NCBI RefSeq assembly: GCF_037042905.1
Contig: NC_087251.1
Coordinates: 10,976,001-11,040,000, forward strand
Length of the DNA stretch: 64,000 bases
Direction: 5' to 3'
Source: Lytechinus pictus
Taxonomy: Eukaryota
Positions 21,701 to 56,000 of this stretch are shown one piece after another (within the stretch, counting starts at the first letter, position 1; the number at the start of each line of letters is the position of its first letter). Under the pieces are notes generated by a model, which worked only from the letters and a program-made list of their open reading frames with translations, had not been told where the DNA came from and did not search any database. A program made the translations under genes and the position numbers.

Positions 21701-22961
21701 CAAACTATTCTTATTAATGCTTTATAAGAAATGTCTATTGCCATTATGCCATTTGCATCTGAAACATTGTTGGTCTTGTAAAGATACATAAAGTGCAACA
21801 AAATGATACTTGTTGAGGTGTTATCACAGTGTCATTTGCGGTATATGCAGAATATTTAAGATAATGTTTATATTCAGATGTGCTGCAACATTTGAACTTA
21901 GGAACGCTTTTCTTTCTGGTATGTGTTTTTATGCCAAACGATGATGCACAATTTGCAGACATTGTATCTTGTAAATTTTCCGACACATAAATGCACTTCG
22001 ATTATGTTTTGCAGCCTTGGGAGAAAGCTGTATGTTAGATAACAAATTAGATCGAGGCTGACTATATTATACAATGAAATACTTGAAAACGTCGTACTGC
22101 GTAACAAGCCCGGTGTGGAGGAAGATCTGAAGACATGAAGTGCTCCCAACACCTCCTATACGTCTTGATCATGTTGATACATTTTGCAATGGCAGCTAGG
22201 CGTGAGAGTTGAAATGACATTCCTTACATCAAGGATATAAATCAGTCTAGTAATTTCTATCTCTTTCTACCAGAGAATCATCGTAAATGATAGTGCCTGC
22301 CTGCATTTTACGTGATTTTCATCATGTTCACCAGTTCTTAAAGCTATCTCAGAGAATATAAATCTACTTTGTGCAAATTAGTAAAACAGTATAGACGTAA
22401 TGATTGGTCCTCGAAATCGGAGTTGAAATGAATTTGGATTGAGTTTCAAATAAAGCACAAAATAATAGTAGTATAGGAGTATTCAAAGCATTGTTGTAAA
22501 AAAAAACCTAAATTAAACGTGAATGAAGTGATTATCGGGTAACAATGTCGTTGGCAGAAATTATTTTTTTGGAGAGTTCAACTCTATTCTGAGGTCAACT
22601 TTGTAAAACGGAGAAACGTTGGTGATGAAGGGAATACATTCAAGTCATCATCATCATCAGCGATGTTCAAGTATTAAGGCTATTTCTTTTGTATTATCAA
22701 AACCTTTTGATAGCTCTTCTGGATATTATAAGATGAAATAGGATTAAATAAAAGAAAGTTTTTCCAGATAATATTATCATTTCATAATGCCCTTTACCCC
22801 CCGATCTGATGTTCTTAGTGCTTACAAGGTCTTTAGGTTGAAATTTCATCCAAGATTATCTTATCTTTTGGAGGTATGGAGACATGACGATGGAATAAAA
22901 GTATAAATGTTGCCAATTTGAAGAAAAATAGCGTATCGAATTCTTCCTGAATGAGTTCAAG

Positions 22962-22989
22962 CATGGACCTACTACTCTATAGGTCCATG
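22962..22989. mobile_element. 28-bp palindromic insert or transposon footprint with a 7-bp TSD
   Basis: GTTCAAG-CATGGACCTA ctactcta TAGGTCCATG-GTTCAAG. Confidence 0.8.
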
Positions 22990-25349
22990 GTTCAAGCTAT
23001 AGAATACACTAGGCATTCAGTACTTAGATCCATTATCCCATAGGAGTGTGTGGTATATGATTCGTCATCAATCGAAACTTAACGAAAACTTTATCTTACA
23101 TTTGAATTAAAGGAATTGCTCACTCACTCTCTCTCTTTCATGTATTTCATTATTGCCCCGTAGGAATTTGAGCATACACGATAAAAATAATGAAATCATA
23201 CAGTCATCACGTGCTTCCCGCGTCAGATTTCTGTTATCATGCTTATTGTAGTATTGATGTCATTTTGTTGTTTCTCATATGAACACACACACACACACAT
23301 AAATCAAATTTCATTTCATTTGCGATAATCTTGATCACTACCATTAAATGGGCATCTTTATCAAATTGAAAAAGAATGTTAAATTGCCTCTTCTGAACTC
23401 TAGATATTGAATAATAACAAAACATCGATATATTTTATTTCAGAGTCCATTCTAAGTAATATATCGCGAATAAACACGGTAGATGAACTGGCTTGTATGA
23501 ATATTCGCAACTTGTAATACAGACGACGAGACACAGGCATGCGATATCTTTTCCTGACCATTTTTCAAAAACTTATATGGAGGTGGAGACTGGTCATAAA
23601 CTATGCCTTGAAACATTTATGAGAGTTTCGGCACAGAAACATTTCTTGATAATAACTGATGTTATAATTGGTTATTAAATGCTACAGATCGTAACTTTGA
23701 TAATCCTAAGTAATATATCATGATGTGCTAATCCGCTTTGTAGACGATAAAGCACGTATCGTATGCACCCTCGATAATGATGAATGCAGGAGTGAGTATT
23801 AAGGGGCAGGGGCAACCATCACCTTCTGATTTTCTAAGTAGTTAAAAAGAGAAAAACGGGGGGGGGGGCAAAAGGAAGAAAAGGAAAGAAAGGAGATAAT
23901 AGAAAAATAAAAAAGAGAGGCGTGGATCTTATAATGTTATGATATACCCTGTAATTCAATTGATAAAATGACGTCACCATTTGTCGTCTTGCTCCCCTTT
24001 CAAAGTACCCTGGTGCCGCCTATGATCATTAATTAGTATTTGGTAGGTATTAATGATTCATATATTGGTACGGGAATGGTGCTTGATTGTCGTGTTTGTT
24101 TATTGTTGCTAGGCATTCTAGTACATGTCCTTACATCAAAGACGTATGAGGCATTCATGGGAAGGTGCACGACTTAAGGTGGATGTAAAGTTTATGAAAT
24201 TAGAACAGAGGATACTTTTGAAAGCATTTGAGGATTTGTGTGGGTTTTTTTTTGTCTATTTGATTTATCTTTTATTTTTTATTTACAGCGGCGACCCAAT
24301 CTCGTGCCCTTGTCTATGATTATGATTGCTTTTTCAACTTTTCATTTGCCTAAATAATCGGGAGTAGTATAGTTGACAGGACGTGTCCCTGGAGTACACA
24401 CCGACATTTTTTATTACTAACCCACTACACACATTTGCATAAGCCAAAACTCACGCACAGTAATTTGGTCGCTAAAAACTGAAGAGGTAGGTGCCCCTTT
24501 AATCATAATCAAAAGAATTTTATCTTCAAAGATTTAAACTTCCGTTAATCATATGAATCTTTTAAACATGTGTGTATAACCGAACTGCACATGGGCAATT
24601 AAATGGAATTAAATTGGAAGCCTATTTTGCTCTCACTTCAAAACCTAACTAAATTAATCACCGTCAAATTAGCTCAGCATGTAGTAGCAAAACTGAACAA
24701 GATCTACTTGCCAGGTCATTATATGAAGATAAATGGATGTGCTACTGTATCTAAACTGTGATCAATAATTCCCGCTGCAATCTTGTCCACCCTGTTTCCC
24801 ATATCCCCCTGCAACTAAGGCAATGGATCAAGTTGTAGTTTAGACCATTTTGAATGTTCAGATATTGTAGAGACGTCTATCACACTGTTTTCAATATTTA
24901 TCCCAGCATGTACAACATTATTTTTCGTTCATTTCTCTTTCTTGCAAAATTTGTTTTTCATAACATTATTTGTAGAGTTGTCATTTTTTTAGAGTTCCAA
25001 TTCTGCGGAAAGGATAATGAAAAAATATTATTCATGATTGTAAAACATGATCCACTATTTTTACCATTAACAGCTGCCTTTGTGAACTCGAGGAAATGTT
25101 TTTCTTATTACGGAAGGATTGTGAAAGTATTGAGTGTCTGATAACGGTTTTTCTATTGGTTTGTATTGTATCATTTTCGGGTTTAGTGGAGGTAACTTTC
25201 AAATTGATTTCCATGAGCAATTCTGACCCTCTTCAGAGTCAATAGCACAAATCAAAAGAGTTTTCTGATATGAAATCGTTCAGCATTGACTATCAAAGTT
25301 GGGAATTGTTTTCTTTCAGGATCTTTCTGAAAGCGGTCCAGACTTCGAG

Positions 25350-47472: not shown

Positions 47473-47794
47473 GGAGAGGTTTACCAACACTTGTCACTTA
47501 GTCTGCTGCCATTATTTTGTCTCATTTTCTAAACTATCAACATTTATATACATTACAAAATAGTAAAAAAACTTTTGTAAAAAAAAAACTTTGCTTATGT
47601 CAGTTTACTATGGTGTATTATCGCAGATATTGTCTTGAACATTTATTCTTGAATAGAAATATGACTATAATTTTAATGGATGCATTTTGTAAATCATCGG
47701 CCATTCATACAAACGTTTGAAGAATGGTAAACAAAATAGTTCCATATAAATGTGCACACACACACAGACGCGTAGTTTAGGCCTACACTTAGAC

Positions 47795-47804
47795 CATGGA
47801 CCTG
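47795..47804. mobile_element. 10-bp remnant of the same palindromic family with a 7-bp TSD
   Basis: CTTAGAC-CATGGACCTG-CTTAGAC. Confidence 0.7.
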
Positions 47805-48200
47805 CTTAGACTAAACATTTTCTGAGGATGGAGTATTTTAAAAAGGTATATTGAAATTGCCAATATTTGATATTATTATTCTAAATTCGATTTGCTTACT
47901 CCCCCACCCCCCCCCCCCACCCGCAGCTCTATCTCTCTCCTTCGATTTATCTATTTTTCTCTTTTATCTTCCTTCTAAACGTTCTCATTAATTACTTTGG
48001 CTAAAGCCTAACAGTGTCTAATAAAGATAATGCCGATGAACAGTACCCAGGCCAAAGTACATGATTGCATGCGACACAGTCAAAACATGTAGATGACGTC
48101 ATAGTTTAAAGATAGAACAATTACATTTCCCTCGCCGTAACTCTGCGGTTGTCAACCACATACATAAGCTAATGTATACCTTGATGATCATATATTATAC

Positions 48201-48227
48201 CATGGACCTATTCGTAATAGGTCCATG
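48201..48227. mobile_element. 27-bp palindromic insert or transposon footprint with a 7-bp TSD
   Basis: ATTATAC-CATGGACCTATT cgt AATAGGTCCATG-ATTATAC. Confidence 0.82.
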
Positions 48228-49270
48228 ATTATACATATTATTATCCAACTGCGCACACAGCAAAGTAGAAAATTTGTGATTTTTTAATTCAACGGTGATA
48301 AATATTTCTGTATTTGAACCAACTGGAGGATATGTTTTGAATGATTAATATATGAAATAATATTAAATCCAAATGGCTGTGATATAATTAGAGTTTGATC
48401 TGCTCATCCAGTGTTCCAGTATTCTTATATAAATCTCAGTGCTAAACTAGAAGGTACCACCATGGTTTAGCTCGAACCCACAACCTCCCGCTCAAACATC
48501 TTTTTTTTGCAGGAGTTTCTGCATTTTATTCATAAATCAATAACAAATAAAAAAAATTGATACAATAACAATGACATGAATTAGTACATTTTTGCGTGAC
48601 AATCGAAAATATAAATAATGTATAAGACTGAAAACTACATAAATGAAGCATGTAAAATAACAAAGTGGGTAAAAATGCAGGGGCAAGCTATAATAAGCAG
48701 GTAACTGCTTGAAAAAATTGCAGCCATGTGGGAGGGCTACATGGAAACCGTAATAGGTTATAAATATAATTCCATAAAATGATGTCACGAAATAGAAAGT
48801 ATGAAAGTTTAGATATTTAGTGGGGAAAGATAAGATAAAGTTTAAAAAAGTGCGAGTGAGTGCTAGTGCGAGTGAGTGCTAGTGCGAGTGAGTGTCTGAT
48901 ATTTCTAGATGGGCTATGTTTTGCGGTGGGGCGCCATGACCGAGCGGTGAGATGGCAGAGCTTTGAATGAACCCTTTTGACCGACCTCCTGGAGCGCAAA
49001 ATCTGTTGATTATTAGGCAACAACCAAACAAAAATAATGCTTATTCCATAGGGCAAAGCAAAACGGAGGAGGTATCTAAAATAATTTTGAACATGAAACA
49101 AATGGGCAACGTTTATTTATCAGTTACACACTCCTATCCTAACGAAAAAAACGTTTTTTTTTTTTAATACCAAAATGTATCGACCAAAATAAAAGAATAT
49201 CAACAATTGATAATCTATTGTAATTTCTGAGCTAGTGAAAATTAACATGGTATACGGAAAATATTTGGAA

Positions 49271-50925
49271 TACTTTGATTTTTTATTTATTTTGAATTTA
49301 TTTATTACCAAATATCACTGTCAGGTACAATTACAAGGAATAGTACATCACATATAAACAAAACATTTGGTAATTGGAGCTAACATAATAGCAAGATGCT
49401 AATCGAGGTTAGCCCCAAATAATGTCATTATAGTTTAAACAATAATTTTAACTAAATATCAATATTGTACATCAAATTCAGTACTAATTCTACTTATTAC
49501 TGTTGCAGAAAATTTCGATCATTTTTAGTGAACATATTTACACTATTTACAAGAAAAAAATATCTTAATTATTCACAAAATCTTTATATAGAATTATTTG
49601 TTTTCAGGCAGTATTTTACCATACCAAATTGATTATAATCTTCCAGTAGCATTAATTTTAACGATTTGCTAAATATCTTACGACTGGGGGTGTTTCTAAT
49701 ATTACTTGGCAGATGATTCCATAAAGTAGGACTAGTAAATGAAATTGATCGTTTTCCCAAATTGGTATTATTTTTGTCAAGATTAACATTTCGCTTTTCT
49801 CTATTTCTTGTATTGTAAGGATGGTCTATACTAAATGAAATATAATCAATAAAACTATGCGGCAACCGATTATTAATTAAATCGTGCATAAATACTCCTA
49901 TCAAATATTGGTATTGTTTTAAAATATCGAGAATATTTAGATCATAAAATAAAGGAGCAGAGTGATAAGTATGATGGTTGAACGTCATTATTCTAGCTAT
50001 TCTTTTTTGAAGTAATAATATAGGGTTCAGGGTTGTTTTGCACGTCCCACCCCAAACTTCCAGACCGTACGTTATATGTGGTAAAATAAATGAGTTGTAT
50101 AACATAACTAAGATTCTCTTTGTTACATAATTCCTCAATCTATAAAGTATTCAAATTGTTTTGCTTAGCACATTGCATACAATGTCAACCTGTTTCTTCC
50201 ATGTAAGGTTTTTGTCGATACATATACCAAGAAATAATGTTGATTCCACACACTCTAATAAAGTTCCTTCAGTGACAATTGTCCTGATATTAAAATATTT
50301 TTTCGTCTATTTTTAAACAACATATATTTAGTCTTCGTAACATTGATTATCAATTTGTTGGCATTGCACCATGTTATTATATTGTTTAAACTGAGACTAA
50401 TTTCTGATAAATCAATATGTTGTTCATCACAATTTAAAGTATGAAATAAAGTCATCCGCAAAAAGAAGGAAATTGAAATAATTTGATGAGTTTGCCAGAT
50501 CGTTTATATACAACAAGAACAAAGTTGGACCCAAAACTGATCCTTGTGGAATACCGCATGAAATTGACCTGTATTCGGAATTTACACCATCATAATTAAC
50601 AAATTGCTTTCTGTTTCGTAAATAATCATTAAACCATTATACCGCCTTACCGCGAATGCCATTATAGTTCTAGTTTTTTAATGAGAATAGAATGATTAAT
50701 CGTATCAAAAGCTTTAGCAAAATCGATGAATATTCCTACTGTCACCTTTCCTTCATCAGTATATCTTGTAATTTGATTAATCAGATTTATCAGTGAAAGT
50801 TTCGCACTGTATCCATTTCTAAAATCATTTTGGTGTTTATACAATATTTCATTCTTTTTTATGAATTTCATTAATCGTGCATTCACTAGTTTTTCAAATA
50901 TTTTGCTAATCGTGGCTAAAATCGG
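49271..50925 (-). mobile_element. 5'-truncated, decayed non-LTR retrotransposon (CR1/L2 group) ORF2: RT domain, C-terminus and 3'UTR
   Basis: The minus strand reads ISKIFEKLV, IFIDFAKAFDTINHSILIKKL, CGIPQGSVLGPTLFLLYINDL..FLLFADD, W..ANKL.IN..KTKYM, LYNSFILPHITYG.EVWG..LQKRIAR. Several stops and frameshifts; 3'UTR stem-loop near 49375-49415 and an AATAAA-rich tail near 49271-49307. Confidence 0.92.
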
Positions 50926-52311
50926 TACAAGAAACAGCTCAAAATTAAGAAAAGGGTATATAAAAAAAGGAAACGCCTGTGAACTTATAATGAAATTATA
51001 ATTAGAAAAAAAGAATTACTTTGAAAAATACGGGTAATGTTATTTTTTGACATTCTTAATTATTTTTGTCGGTAGTAATGTGCAGTAAGATATTTGAAAT
51101 AACAAAATCGAGTATTGTACTACGATTCTTTTTTTCTTTTGCAATACCGAACTCGAAAAATTGTCTATAAAGTCGGGCAACAGAACAAATCGACTCTTTA
51201 TACTGGAGAATGAAAGGTTGTATAAGTAAACTGTTGTTGAAATATTCAGACATCACCTCCTCCTCCTCGATACTGTATCCAAATATCAGTCACTTCATCA
51301 GAAAATTTCCCTTGAGATGACATCATCATCCAAATACGATTCTAACTGTGTGACTTTCTTAAAACCAACATTATTGTGGGTGCGTGCGTGCCACGTTCTT
51401 TATGTTTGCAGAAGATGTAACACAAAGAGAAATTTCACAAAAAACGATGATTTGCAGGCGTAAAAGTCACCTTGAAGTAATACGATTCATTCTATAATTC
51501 TCTTTATCTGAATAATAATGACATCATTGTCGTGGGAAGGAAAAGAAAGGTTTTTCAGTGCCTATAAAGAATGTCCGACGTTAATCCTCAAACTAGTACT
51601 TTCTTTGGAAAATGTGGCAGTGCTTGTAAGACATTTTGTTCAATTTCATTTGTTTCAGAATTTATAGGCTACGACTTTAAACACCCTTCTGGTTCTCAAA
51701 GTTGTCTTAATTATGATAATAATCATACCATGATTAATTAATTGATTGATTTTTGTTCGTCAGGTATAACACAAGATATCGAATGTAAAATTGTTAGGAT
51801 CAAATTGATATCTTGACAGGATAACCAATGAAAGTCGAAATTGCTTATTTCCAATGGGGTCCTATACATGATTGACGACAAACACTATACAGCTACAAAC
51901 GAGGTAAAGCAAACCAGAAATCTAAAGTAGCAAATACAAAAAATATGTTACTAACTCTTTGGAAAAGACGAATGTATTTATATGCTTTCAAGTATTCGCT
52001 GATAATGCATCAGGTTAAAGTATGTGATAGACGAGAAAGGTGATATTGGAGATAATTGAATGAGAGAGAAAGGGGAGAGAGAAAAGGGGAGAGAGGGGGA
52101 GGGGGAAACTAGAAATAGTAAGAGAGGTAGAGAAAGGAAGAGAGATGGAGACAGCAACGGGTGAAATGATAAGGAGGAGAAATCGAGGGGCATTTCAAAT
52201 AAGAAAATTGATACGAGATTATTTAAAGTAACTTGCGCAAGCGTGACCACAAACAAAAATTACGAAAGAACAAGAAGACGTAAGTGGATGAGGTTGTCAG
52301 GATGATATAAC

Positions 52312-52332
52312 CATGGACCTACTAGGTCCATG
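52312..52332. mobile_element. 21-bp palindromic insert or transposon footprint with a 7-bp TSD
   Basis: ATATAAC-CATGGACCTA c TAGGTCCATG-ATATAAC. Confidence 0.82.
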
Positions 52333-52978
52333 ATATAACAAGGGGTGGGTGAAGAAGGATGTGAGGACATCCGCATCCTTATGGTGTCTTGTGCCTACAA
52401 TCATCCCACTCCCAAGGCAAAGTTAGTGTTGACATTTATGTGACCACATGGATTGCCTGTGGACATCAATATGAACATGTAATCAGCTTGACATTGATCA
52501 CTACACACGAATCACTGCACCTGTGCATCATTAAGTATGGTTTGTCTATCTGGAAGATAATATCTGGTATCAACATCCGCCGCATCTACACACGATCCCA
52601 CTATACCAGGGCGCCATTACTGGCATACACATCGGGATGGGGACATTTATATAACGTACTGACCGCCTGTTAACACCATTTCTGAATAACAAAATTGTAA
52701 ATTTGGTTGCATACTTCATTTCGCACGATATGTGTATCATCACTGAGGTTTCCATTTCACCTCCATGGTTTCATAAATCAGTTTTGGGTTCCATGTGTCA
52801 TCATACATGTAATATCTAAAATTACACTGATGTCATATGCATGTTCAGACAACGTACCCAACATGGTCGCCACAATTATTCAGGGGTCCGAGCCAAAATA
52901 CGGGGAGGAAGGAATCAGCAGAAAGCATTGTACATTGGATTCAATTGCACAGCTCCCCCATCTTGCCATAACTATAAC

Positions 52979-53012
52979 CATAGACCTATGTTAGAATGTC
53001 AGTAGGTCTATA
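52979..53012. mobile_element. Diverged 34-bp member of the palindromic footprint family
   Basis: CTATAAC-CATAGACCTA tgttagaatgtcag TAGGTCTATA-TAATAAC (TSD 5/7). Confidence 0.55.
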
Positions 53013-56000
53013 TAATAACTACAATAGTATTTCTATAGATTAATGCTTTTCTAATTGTAAAACCAATATTATGAAAATCATGTACGATACATCCTTGATA
53101 TAATGATATAAACGTGGCGACTTTTAATACATTTAGTTACAAGCTTATCAACATGTCACAGATGTTATGCTACTAATTAATGTTAGGAATTAACACATTC
53201 GATGTTATACAATTTACATTAATTTACACCTTCGATGTGTGCAGATTACTCCTGGTAACTTTATATTTAACTTTACATTTTTTCCCCCTATAATTTATCT
53301 GAAGTTCATAGAGTTTAGTTATAAATGTAATGACATTCCCATTTTCATTTAGCCTTTTTTTCATGAACATCTTTGATCATTCAAGGATCACGATGCCAAG
53401 TAAGAGATATAGAGACTGATATAGAGGGGGTGCCATTGCAAACACGATAGATAAAAGCTGAAATTTATATTCACAATCTGATTAACAAATTTTAAGTTCA
53501 GCTCTAATTATGGGTAATTACTTAATTTCATTTCTGCATAATCCTTTGCTTTTTTTATGTAGGCCATAATACTACCGGATAATTTTTTTTCTCTCGGCTA
53601 TCTTTTTTAAATAAACAAACCTTTGAATACTGAAGAAGCGGTTACTTTTTGAATGAAATGATTTGCTTTATTTACATTATGAGTTTTTAAATGAAAAATA
53701 TGAATTAGAAATGAGATCTAAAATACCATCCAGTAAAAGTACTGTATATAGGTCCATAAGAAAATTTGTCCATTGATCGGGTTGACCTGCAGCGGCATCG
53801 TATAGCCTATATTAGAGTTTAATAGATTGCTTTCCTCTAAGCTAGTCATCAATGGGGGCATTCACATGTCATCCACGATCTTCCTCCTCCTCCTTCTTAA
53901 CATAATTTATGAAGATCAAGCCGTAATGAGGATGCTGCATCACAACTGATGCAGAGAGCAAGCGGGAGAGTGTATGTCGTCTGCGTAGTTTCCCGCCCTT
54001 TCGCTCCGCGTCATAAAGGATGCTTTTTATTGGTCTTCGCTGACCATTGACCATACATGGAGAGCAGGATATTAACGAACTGGTCGATGACTCATCGGCT
54101 ATTATCATTCAGCGACGTCGCTTCGCCAACATCAAGGTTCGGTGTCGCTAACAGCCTCTACCCGAGGTTCATGTCGCGTGCAGGCAGTTCCTGACGTCAA
54201 GGGTCAATAAAGATATCTTTAAAGCAAAGATATCTTTAAAGCTCAGTGTATCATGAAGCGGGATGGGGAGGGGTGGGATAGAGGGGTGTAAGGGTGTGTG
54301 TGTGTTTGTGGGGGGGGGTTAAACAGTTTTTTTTTTTACAATACTTAGGCACTCGCCCCCCTAGTGTATCCTGGTGGTATACCTTTGTAGATTGCTGTTG
54401 ATTTCGAATATTTTTTTGTTGATCGGCAAAATTAAAATACATGAAAGCACATTTAACCCATCCCTTTTAAACCAATCAATAATATAGCCCTCTCAATTTC
54501 TTTCATTACTTTGTCAACTCCCTCTCCCCCTCTCAGATGTATATTCTAAACATTCAATAGTCTTGTTTATTTTGTTTGAAGCAAGCGAAAGTCGAGGAGG
54601 ATTTGACATTCAATATCATGAAACAGGATGAGCGGGGAAACATCATCAGTTCCTTGATTTTTGTTGTAAAATGAATCCTGGCCATCTGGTGGTGCCTACA
54701 TACATAGCCAATAATGAAGAAGATGGATACAGAAAGTGCACGTCTCCGGCTGCATGTATTAGGATGAAACAGTCAAACAGTGGCTATGGAATTAAATGAT
54801 GGGGAGGATAACTCTGATTGTAAAAGTCAAAGATGTAGGTTTGAATGTAGTTTGAAGCTGGGAGCGTATGGAATATTTACCTCATCTCTATTCCATCATT
54901 CATTTTCACATTTCTCATTTCTGCTCTGCTTTCTTCCATTCTTTTCGTGATCTAGGTAATGTGTTTTCAATGTGATTTTCATTCAGAAAGCAAAGCAGGT
55001 TGTATTTGTAATTAGCTTGTTTTAGAGTATTTTAAAAGAGCTGCTCACGATATTCCTCCTCTAAATATAGACGATAAGAAGACCTTTATTTTTTCTGTAT
55101 TACAACGTTGATACCCCTCCAACACGTCATGTTTAAAGATATGGGCCTTCATGTATCATGTGAATATTAATGTTCAGAAATTCCCTTTCGACGAGTTCCT
55201 CTTCATTAAGTGGATATGGTCCGATGGTCTGACCACAAGAGCATGTGTATCTTCCAAGATTTCACCGACGCCAATAAAGTCGTCAATGCGATAATTATAG
55301 TACAGCGAACTTTTTTGTCGTTGGTGCAATAGCGCTTTGAAAATAATCCGTGAACGAAATGCTGTCAAATTTGAATGAAAAACAAAACGCTTCAAATCAA
55401 TATCCTCTCCCTGATTTTTTTAAAATAAATTATTTTGAATAGGGAGGGCTAATCCCTCATCATGCCCCTTCCACGTTGGTTTTGGGTGTGGTGTTGGGGG
55501 CGGTGTAGACAAGAGGGTAGATGAAATTGGTTTGACGTCCGAGGGAAAGTGAAGAGGAGGCCAAACTCATCAAAGAGATAATAAAGAATGTCGTAATGTC
55601 CTGTTTTGCTGCTTCTTCAATATCTCTTCATACATTCTCCAACAAACACTTGAAAAACCCTTCCGTGCTCGATGAGGATGAGGGGTTTCATAAAATAACA
55701 TCAAATTTATCACGATATGTCATTATAATGCTAACATAAGCACTATTTCAATCATCATGTTCAGCTTAAGAGAAAAATATATTACCAATAGTTATTATGA
55801 TATCAGTGATGTATGTATCTAAAACATTGAGTTAATAGACACCATCAAGAGTAGTGAATGGGATAAAAGAAACAAAAATCATGAGCTCGAGCATGTTGAA
55901 GTACATCATATGAAAACCATGATCCAGATAAATTACAGACAGCGGTATTACCGGTTTTCAAATTCCCTTTCAATAAAGATTAATGACTTTGATTTTTCTA

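Follow-up and report, generated by a model that had tools for sequence, protein, structure and literature searches.

Excision of the Drosophila P element leaves, as described in the available parts of two papers (PMC2895639; PMC7776569), a product that consists of the TSD, up to 17 nt, filler, again up to 17 nt and the second TSD. The same parts describe CAT...ATG ends, a 31-bp TIR split 17 + 14, long 3' donor tails, and junctions with microhomology or templated insertions between intact TSDs. Galileo, in the accessible portions of PMC4168063 and PMC2775673, makes a 7-bp TSD at a palindromic GTANTAC-like target. It carries foldback arms, and a THAP domain is reported for it. An N-terminal zinc-finger domain, Chapa/NZD, occurs in Chapaev and in RAG1/RAG1L, and among transposons it is said to be confined to RAG1/RAG1-like and Chapaev, as far as the available text of both sources goes (PMC4411706; bioRxiv 10.64898/2026.01.24.700457). 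N-RAG-TP of Aplysia, in the part of PMC8355894 at hand, is a transposon encoding RAG1 N-terminal-like sequence without the Transib core, described as the N-terminal-like part alone.

The window, meaning the whole 64-kb stretch of Lytechinus pictus DNA analysed here, carries short palindromic inserts that we read, with a probability of about 0.92, as donor-site scars of a cut-and-paste family of the P superfamily. The likeness to Drosophila P extends to the termini, the TIR split and the junctions between intact TSDs, and would extend to the long 3' tails predicted for the donor ends; the core of the parent clade matches the P structure 6P5A. The TSD is 7 bp here and 8 bp in P, one family here has 20-nt stubs, and THAP was not found in the three proteins searched; furthermore, the scars here arose in nature and are fixed as a class with thousands of members, whereas the P products are from the laboratory. 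Galileo shares the TSD length and the palindromic target, but the TIRs here are short (31-34 bp) and the clade lacks a THAP match in those same proteins. Chapaev and RAG1L share the N-terminal finger, but the clade here combines it with a P-type core, which has a GTP-binding insertion in the relative P0002, instead of a Transib/CMC-type core, and with a 7-bp TSD and CAT ends. N-RAG-TP, as described, resembles the clade here in encoding RAG1 N-terminal-like sequence without a Transib core and differs in consisting of that part alone.

Short inserts in the window and the genome

All five insert copies reported in the earlier note were found where it had placed them, four of them between perfect 7-bp repeats (Table 1). 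Exact two-arm copies number three in the window, where 100 shuffles gave an expectation of 0.00. A generic scan for CAT..ATG inserts returned four matches flanked by 7-bp repeats, three being family members and one a microsatellite (shuffle mean 0.2), with none at 8 bp and four at 9 bp. The copy at 47795 departs from the earlier description, having one real arm (9 nt) and 2 nt of the other tip. The diverged copy is a probable member of the scar class.

Table 1. Short inserts of the window, with one neighbouring stretch
Feature	Position	Strand	Description
Family-B scar	22955..22996		TSD GTTCAAG + 17-nt B-type arm + 1 nt + 10-nt arm + TSD; 28-nt insert = 22962-22989
Minimal scar, family not assignable	47788..47811		TSD CTTAGAC; 10-nt insert = 9-nt arm + 2-nt tip, 1 nt shared
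Family-A scar, commonest 27-nt product	48194..48234	-	17-nt arm + 10-nt arm, 2-nt tip pairing; TSD ATTATAC
21-nt scar, family B or D	52305..52339		Arms of 13 + 10 nt sharing TA; TSD ATATAAC
Old, diverged scar-like insert	52972..53019		34 nt, CATAG-type arms, flanks 5/7 alike
Multicopy stretch between copies (context only)	49584..51015	-	Reverse-transcriptase-like reading frames; LINE remnant by eye; high depth in runs

Runs X1-X4 from other samples share only about 0.1 of words and were compared as contigs, the sites 47795, 52312 and 52979 without letter-by-letter reading. At 48201, run X1 carries an empty site (joint 48179-48228, a single target copy), the kind of allele that the earlier note had asked for; an empty site proves insertion, not excision, and at no locus were an empty site, the full element and a scar all observed. 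At 47795, arithmetic on spans and gap counts gives 12 letters deleted in X1 and X2, where an empty site would require 17, and this scar is probably present in organism A as well. The left arm of the scar at 52305 was found in all four runs, in pieces that end at 52321. The single copies of the window are probably neutral, and the scars most likely inert.

The class is genome-wide, as had been proposed: exact two-arm matches with a spacer of 0-20 number 1,296 against 0 for the reversed pattern, and perfect 10-nt arms 11,127 against 620 in the control. The expectation of a 7-bp palindromic target also held. Among 15 loci the TSD was exactly 7 bp in 11, had at most one mismatch in 14 and was 8 bp in none; over 30 sites, strand-symmetrised to 60 counts, T stood at position 2 in 54, and the target reads nTnnnAn with G..C ends favoured. 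A separate large CATAG family was considered and rejected because only 15 exact two-arm copies of that type exist genome-wide, and these share the junction types of families A and B. No TIR match was found in metagenome contigs. Among the titles and abstracts searched, none treats a natural genome-wide class of P-type scars or P transposases with a Chapa domain; Repbase, the paper on N-RAG-TP and the supplementary table of the bioRxiv preprint, which lay outside the search, may contain either.

Arm limits and junctions

Scar arms end where the inner TIR motif TGGACA begins. In family A this point lies at 17 nt, as in Drosophila P, and in family B at 20 nt. Tallies were made by eye on the first 100 listed rows, in which one locus may be counted twice. 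For family A (100 listed rows of 199), none of the 17-nt arms continues into GAATGG and one reaches 19 nt; for family B (100 listed rows of 135), 44 retain 20 nt and just one of these extends to 22 nt. If the tail is 17 nt long, untrimmed products should measure 28, 27, 25 and 19 nt; the listed family-A rows contain 61 of 27 nt, 18 of 28 nt and 6 of 25 nt. The 27-nt product is compatible with tails of 17 and of 18 nt, and about 6 of the 100 rows also fit 18. A tail of 18 nt should give a 34-nt palindrome, which occurs in none of the 100. For family B the top predicted product of a 20-nt tail is 37 nt, found in 20 of the 44 rows with 20 nt. As judged from these sequences, the commonest junctions match microhomology joins of 17- and 20-nt overhangs. 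Genome-wide, the junction does not differ every time, the same 27-mer standing in 61 of 100 listed family-A rows. Nor was the notion supported that identical spacers would speak against footprints, since their recurrence coincides exactly with microhomology between the overhangs.

The recurrence could instead point to micro-MITEs, mobile inserts of 20-37 bp that each transpose whole. Identical inserts do stand at unrelated sites with different TSDs (the 27-mer as above, the 37-mer in about 20 rows), and empty sites exist. On the other hand, the recurrent forms are those predicted from tail microhomology, many inserts are one-armed (10-17 nt), and the common forms lack the inner TIR half and hence complete ends, the half that the P transposase contacts with its HTH domain according to the available part of PMC7776569. 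Moreover, 20-nt arms in the TIR-derived orientation join many partner lengths (24 rows), and in the opposite orientation of the 37-mer only a few rows do so (by eye), an asymmetry that counts against a mobile 37-mer because its decay would be symmetric. We therefore regard this explanation, which the earlier note had held out as the alternative, as very improbable.

Equally improbable is the proposal that the inserts are mainly deletion derivatives of abortive gap repair (SDSA), in which case the arms would measure how far synthesis had gone rather than where the cut fell. For wild-type flies, the part of PMC2895639 consulted describes SDSA with subsequent end joining as the main route, and the 77-nt remnant L078 is such a product; since longer remnants of this kind exist, pure end joining does not account for all of them. 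SDSA would, however, spread lengths past the cut, and the arms stop sharply at the outer/inner boundary, which was passed by at least 2 nt in 0 of 100 listed rows of A and 1 of 44 of B, with patterns that detect short inserts only.

A narrower doubt concerns the 20-nt value. The family-B enzyme might also cut at 17 nt, with three further nucleotides added by templated fill-in, or the difference might be a fixed property of each enzyme rather than a distance counted from the inner motif. The transposases of B and of the A/D lineage are just 32-47% identical and are therefore different enzymes, and a third end type, CAAAGAGA, with an 18-nt outer part, gave 25 matches that are mostly element ends, only two of which stop at 18 nt (TSDs unchecked). 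Yet the three extra bases are positions 18-20 of the parent TIR (L077) and stop precisely where TGGACA starts, and the 37-nt join that dominates is the one they predict, so that we hold either version to be unlikely.

Elements with CATGGACCTA termini insert at nTnnnAn and duplicate 7 bp. Under the scar reading, and from the scar pattern and Drosophila chemistry, the transposase would cut one strand at the terminus of the element and its partner within the TIR, immediately ahead of TGGACA, so that each flank may retain a 3' single-stranded outer-TIR tail of 17 nt in family A (17 + 14 = 31 bp TIR) or 20 nt in family B (20 + 14). Germline end joining, probably of the polymerase-theta type, would pair the tail tips at microhomologies of 1-3 nt, at times with templated insertions, giving a predicted product of TSD, two stubs and TSD fixed in thousands of copies.

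Parent elements and their transposase

Long elements with the same termini, which had been anticipated, were found in two forms. One is a MITE of about 850 bp with 31-bp TIRs and about 200 copies; copies of 854 and 841 bp each have their own 7-bp TSD and 31-bp TIR, the copies L053 and L076 carry the perfect TIR with CAT...ATG termini, and a short motif is repeated near both ends (by eye). A 23-nt TIR end has 422 genomic matches against 0 in the control, many paired about 0.85 kb apart. L076 contains a 28-nt scar that is absent from L053. A second locus with a broken transposase connects to the MITE lineage: it is 82% identical to the right end of the MITE across 96 nt and 80% identical to the left interior across 328 nt, and the transposase matches fall between these two similarities. 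The other form is the family-B parent (G000:C2:34078107-34083997; 5,891 bp), with ATTAAAG on both sides as the 7-bp TSD; its transposase gene is broken, and its frame scores 54.8 bits for PF21787 (cut-off 24.6). The outer sequence of family B is based on two parent ends, each one base off the scar consensus. Both parents with coding sequence are broken, and the search turned up no autonomous, intact element with these termini.

The best-scoring P-type frames, the near-identical L020, L021 and L016, were examined as parents. They are not called so because the DNA compared has neither the CATGGACC TIR nor MITE similarity, and because L020 and L021 (959 aa, no such TIR within 3.4 kb) are only 21-24% identical to the B parent. 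A 6.4-kb element at C4:4509025 seemed autonomous and proved to be a MITE with nested insertions and no transposase frame.

The parent elements show DEM, DG and DxPH motifs and a P-type RNase H DDE core, and the clade profile matches 6P5A at E 1.3e-22. P0002, a relative 29% identical to the B parent frame, exceeds the cut-offs for PF12560 and for the GTP-binding insertion PF21788, the latter not seen in the truncated B parent. Its N-terminal His/Cys pattern aligns to the mouse RAG1 NZD (21WB) over about 100 positions (profile E 1.6e-6); RAG1 chains match residues 25-102 only, and the remaining core matches P transposase. The NZD motif recurs in L030, L031 and L037 (one ligand codon is a stop), with its first half in L081. 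At sequence level the double zinc finger is thus of the Chapa/NZD kind, and the catalytic core is not of the Transib/CMC type. The L037 frame, the L030 frame and full-length P0002 gave no THAP match; for the B parent, a 5' exon may lie in the 2.5 kb or so ahead of the frame, beyond the sequence read. The B parent frame alone had no solved-structure match below E 0.2. The AlphaFold model of P0002 is poor (mean pLDDT 48.7), and a fold search with it returned just P transposase below E 0.001, and no NZD.

The two coding relatives, as read from their sequences, carry a P-type RNase H core behind a RAG1-NZD/Chapa-like zinc finger, and the parent clade seems to carry this finger N-terminally instead of THAP. 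Such a combination contradicts both statements of restriction, as worded in the accessible parts of PMC4411706 and bioRxiv 10.64898/2026.01.24.700457, and points to domain exchange between superfamilies. The earlier assignment to a P/THAP type stands for the P core (PF21787, 6P5A) and is not supported for THAP, which had no match in the three proteins searched. From the capped arms, the predicted junctions, the P-type parents and the empty site it follows that the reading as P-superfamily footprints holds; the stagger of 10-12 nt does not, the arms reaching 17 or 20 nt.

What the probable scars record

As a rule, excision cannot be seen in one genome alone. Because a long stagger of the P type leaves stubs that can be read, this genome keeps a record in which past excisions, the targets chosen and their repair in the germline can be counted, and in which scar lengths would show the cut depth of each family's enzyme. 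The scars capped at 17 and at 20 nt make the determinant of the inner cut directly testable. We lean towards the view that these elements form an undescribed marine-invertebrate P clade in which the RAG1-NZD/Chapa finger replaces THAP, the inner cut would be set from the inner TIR half with staggers of 17 and 20 nt, and the scars would read out both the cuts and the rules of germline end joining. If this is true, the finger domain would connect P elements with the way in which the N terminus of RAG1 arose.

Palindromic scars in the window and across the assembly

The five palindromic inserts reported by the earlier note were all found in the window, where exact two-arm copies number three as against none in 100 shuffles. 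Its suggestion of a genome-wide class holds as well, with 1,296 exact two-arm matches in the whole 812-Mb animal assembly versus 0 in the control; the window occupies C7:10976001-11040000 of this assembly. Perfect 10-nt arms occur 11,127 times genome-wide (control, 620), and from these two counts the scars, with MITE ends subtracted, probably total an estimated several thousand. The flanking repeat measures the expected 7 bp, being exact in 11 of 15 loci and within one mismatch in 14, and 8 bp was seen in 0 of the 15 loci examined. The target is palindromic as proposed, position 2 being T in 54 of the 60 symmetrised counts, and resembles the GTANTAC target described for Galileo (PMC4168063; further literature in PMC2775673). 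The window, chosen for these copies, holds three exact ones where the genome averages about 0.1 per 64 kb; since its copies differ in subfamily and age, a preferred region is a more likely cause of the clustering than a single hopping trail. Minimal CATG scars are likely to form a large uncounted class; one is fixed within the MITE itself and was matched again in the MITE copy L076. At 15 loci, four of them close together on C18, both arms carry a mirrored change (CATAG...CTATG) with several junction types, which may reflect hairpin-templated correction of palindromes.

Run X1, from organism A and about 93% identical across the compared piece, provides an empty-site allele of the kind the earlier note expected: the insert at 48201 is missing there, along with one target copy. 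Similarly, a 28-nt scar within L076 is missing from the same place in another MITE copy, L053. The left arm of the 52312 insert is present in all four runs from other samples (X1-X4), as the 47795 insert probably is, so both inserts are older, and their presence speaks against a simple picture. No full element was seen at a scar site among the sites compared. At window position 48212, comparison with runs X1-X4 showed many related scars in organism A, including a 28-nt variant bearing an extra C, which suggests that this organism has its own subfamily.

Parent elements and their transposase

Long parent elements, also anticipated, were found. Following arms without closure within 45 nt led to a non-coding element, 841-854 bp long, whose TIR measures 31 bp and which has a 7-bp TSD of its own. 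Its 23-nt end has 422 matches, many paired about 0.85 kb apart, so this MITE has about 200 copies. A search for variant ends revealed a common plan of CATGGACCTA, a variable stretch and TGGACA; the outer part measures 17, 18 or 20 nt, and in rare cases 22 nt. One of the 20-nt ends starts a 5,891-bp element (the family B parent), whose right TIR has collapsed and whose P-type transposase gene is broken. The 22-nt ends look as if a donor tail had been joined back, imperfectly, onto an element end, and TIRs of new length may arise in this way. At the second coding locus, transposase matches lie 5.5-6.7 kb inward from the 17-nt end, and beyond them comes sequence with 80% similarity to the left interior of the MITE, the span studied stopping before the far terminus. 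The genome search found no intact autonomous copy with these termini. By eye, a TTTACGACC-like motif, a candidate binding site, was noticed near both MITE ends and the left end of the family B parent.

Coordinates of parent elements, ends, minimal scars and transposase features
Feature	Location	Remarks
Family B parent	C2:34078107-34083997	5,891 bp; starts with 20-nt end; ATTAAAG flanking both sides
Second coding locus	C2:34462571 (17-nt end)	82% similarity to MITE right end
22-nt outer parts	C3:60612855; C3:70288315; C9:14607516	single element ends
TTTACGACC-like motif	L053 ~105-118, 730-745; L077	MITE copy; family B parent left end
Nested insertion	L076:309-5826	5.5 kb in MITE copy; long, internally repetitive inverted arms
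Minimal scars	L053:2214-2231; L001:1561; L068:1649	7-mer, CATG, same 7-mer
NZD/Chapa-like N terminus (RAG1-type zinc finger)	L037:280-520; L030; L031; L081:1-170; P0002 residues 6-103	P-type transposases; instead of THAP
P-type frame, another family	L020 (C4:26169161); L021 (C21:9246940)	959 aa; 99.9% identical
P-transposase fragments	G000:C6:17787000-17804600 (L034, L038-L040, L043-L045)	many, short; locally repetitive 17-kb stretch

The frame of the family B parent and its relatives open with the pattern His-CRLC...HP-CxxC...H-CxxC. The best named relative found for a transposase from this genome comes from a sea urchin. P0002, a full-length sea-urchin relative of 868 aa, exceeds the Pfam cut-offs of three families: P RNase H, GTP-binding and RAG1 N-terminal. 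The Pfam search of full-length P0002 gave no THAP match; the proposed P/THAP type is supported as to the P core and not supported as to THAP. Against solved structures, P0002 matched P transposase (E 4e-23) and the mouse RAG1 NZD (E 3e-5); the zinc-ligand motifs align to the NZD in a seven-sequence profile (E 1.6e-6), and 12 of 4,672 candidates are relatives below E 1e-20. Structure prediction did not confirm the NZD/Chapa domain. According to Kapitonov and Koonin, no other transposable elements so far known carry the Chapa domain (PMC4411706), and in a 2026 preprint Chapaev is the sole such lineage named (bioRxiv 10.64898/2026.01.24.700457). Aplysia N-RAG-TP (cf. PMC8355894) may be relevant to the NZD-bearing P clade. 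The L020/L021 family, judged from its two near-identical frames, was probably active recently.

Position of the cut and repair of the donor site

In family A, the 17-nt arm lies within a short scar in 199 rows. Tallied by eye, the first 100 of these gave lengths of 27 nt (61), 28 nt (18), 25 nt (6) and others (15, several with templated repeats), and none of the 100 extends the arm into GAATGG. With a 17-nt tail, a simple tip-pairing model run on the real TIR sequence predicts products of 28, 27, 25 and 19 nt; with one of 18 nt it predicts 27, 34, 19, 33, 30 and 23 nt. Because the 34-nt palindrome is absent from the same 100 rows and the 30-nt form occurs only twice, a 17-nt tail fits best. 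In family B, 20 nt are kept in 44 of the 100 rows listed (of 135); 20 of the 44 are the 37-nt form, the first-ranked product for a 20-nt tail, 24 are joined to different partners, and a single one extends to 22 nt. Few ends (3 matches, at most one mismatch) run on into the inner motif. The scars thus fit 17 nt and 20 nt rather than the 10-12 nt stagger suggested earlier.

The Drosophila P element is cut 17 nt into its 31-bp TIR, whose inner half the HTH domain binds (PMC7776569). Family A follows this 17 + 14 plan and family B a 20 + 14 plan, and the two families have different enzymes, 32-47% identical. The inner TIR motif may position the cut; the available text of PMC10983969 gives no cut position.

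At the scar junctions, between intact TSDs, joins at microhomologies of 1-3 nt recur and templated insertions are seen; both match the polymerase-theta-dependent end joining described for P-element tails in flies (PMC2895639), and a pathway of this type probably made the scars. Abortive gap repair occurs too, as the 77-nt remnant L078 shows. Both the mechanism and this kind of product are already known, and here the scars occur naturally as a large class; on present evidence, as read from sequence, two things seem new, a stub length specific to each family and a P clade that bears the NZD.
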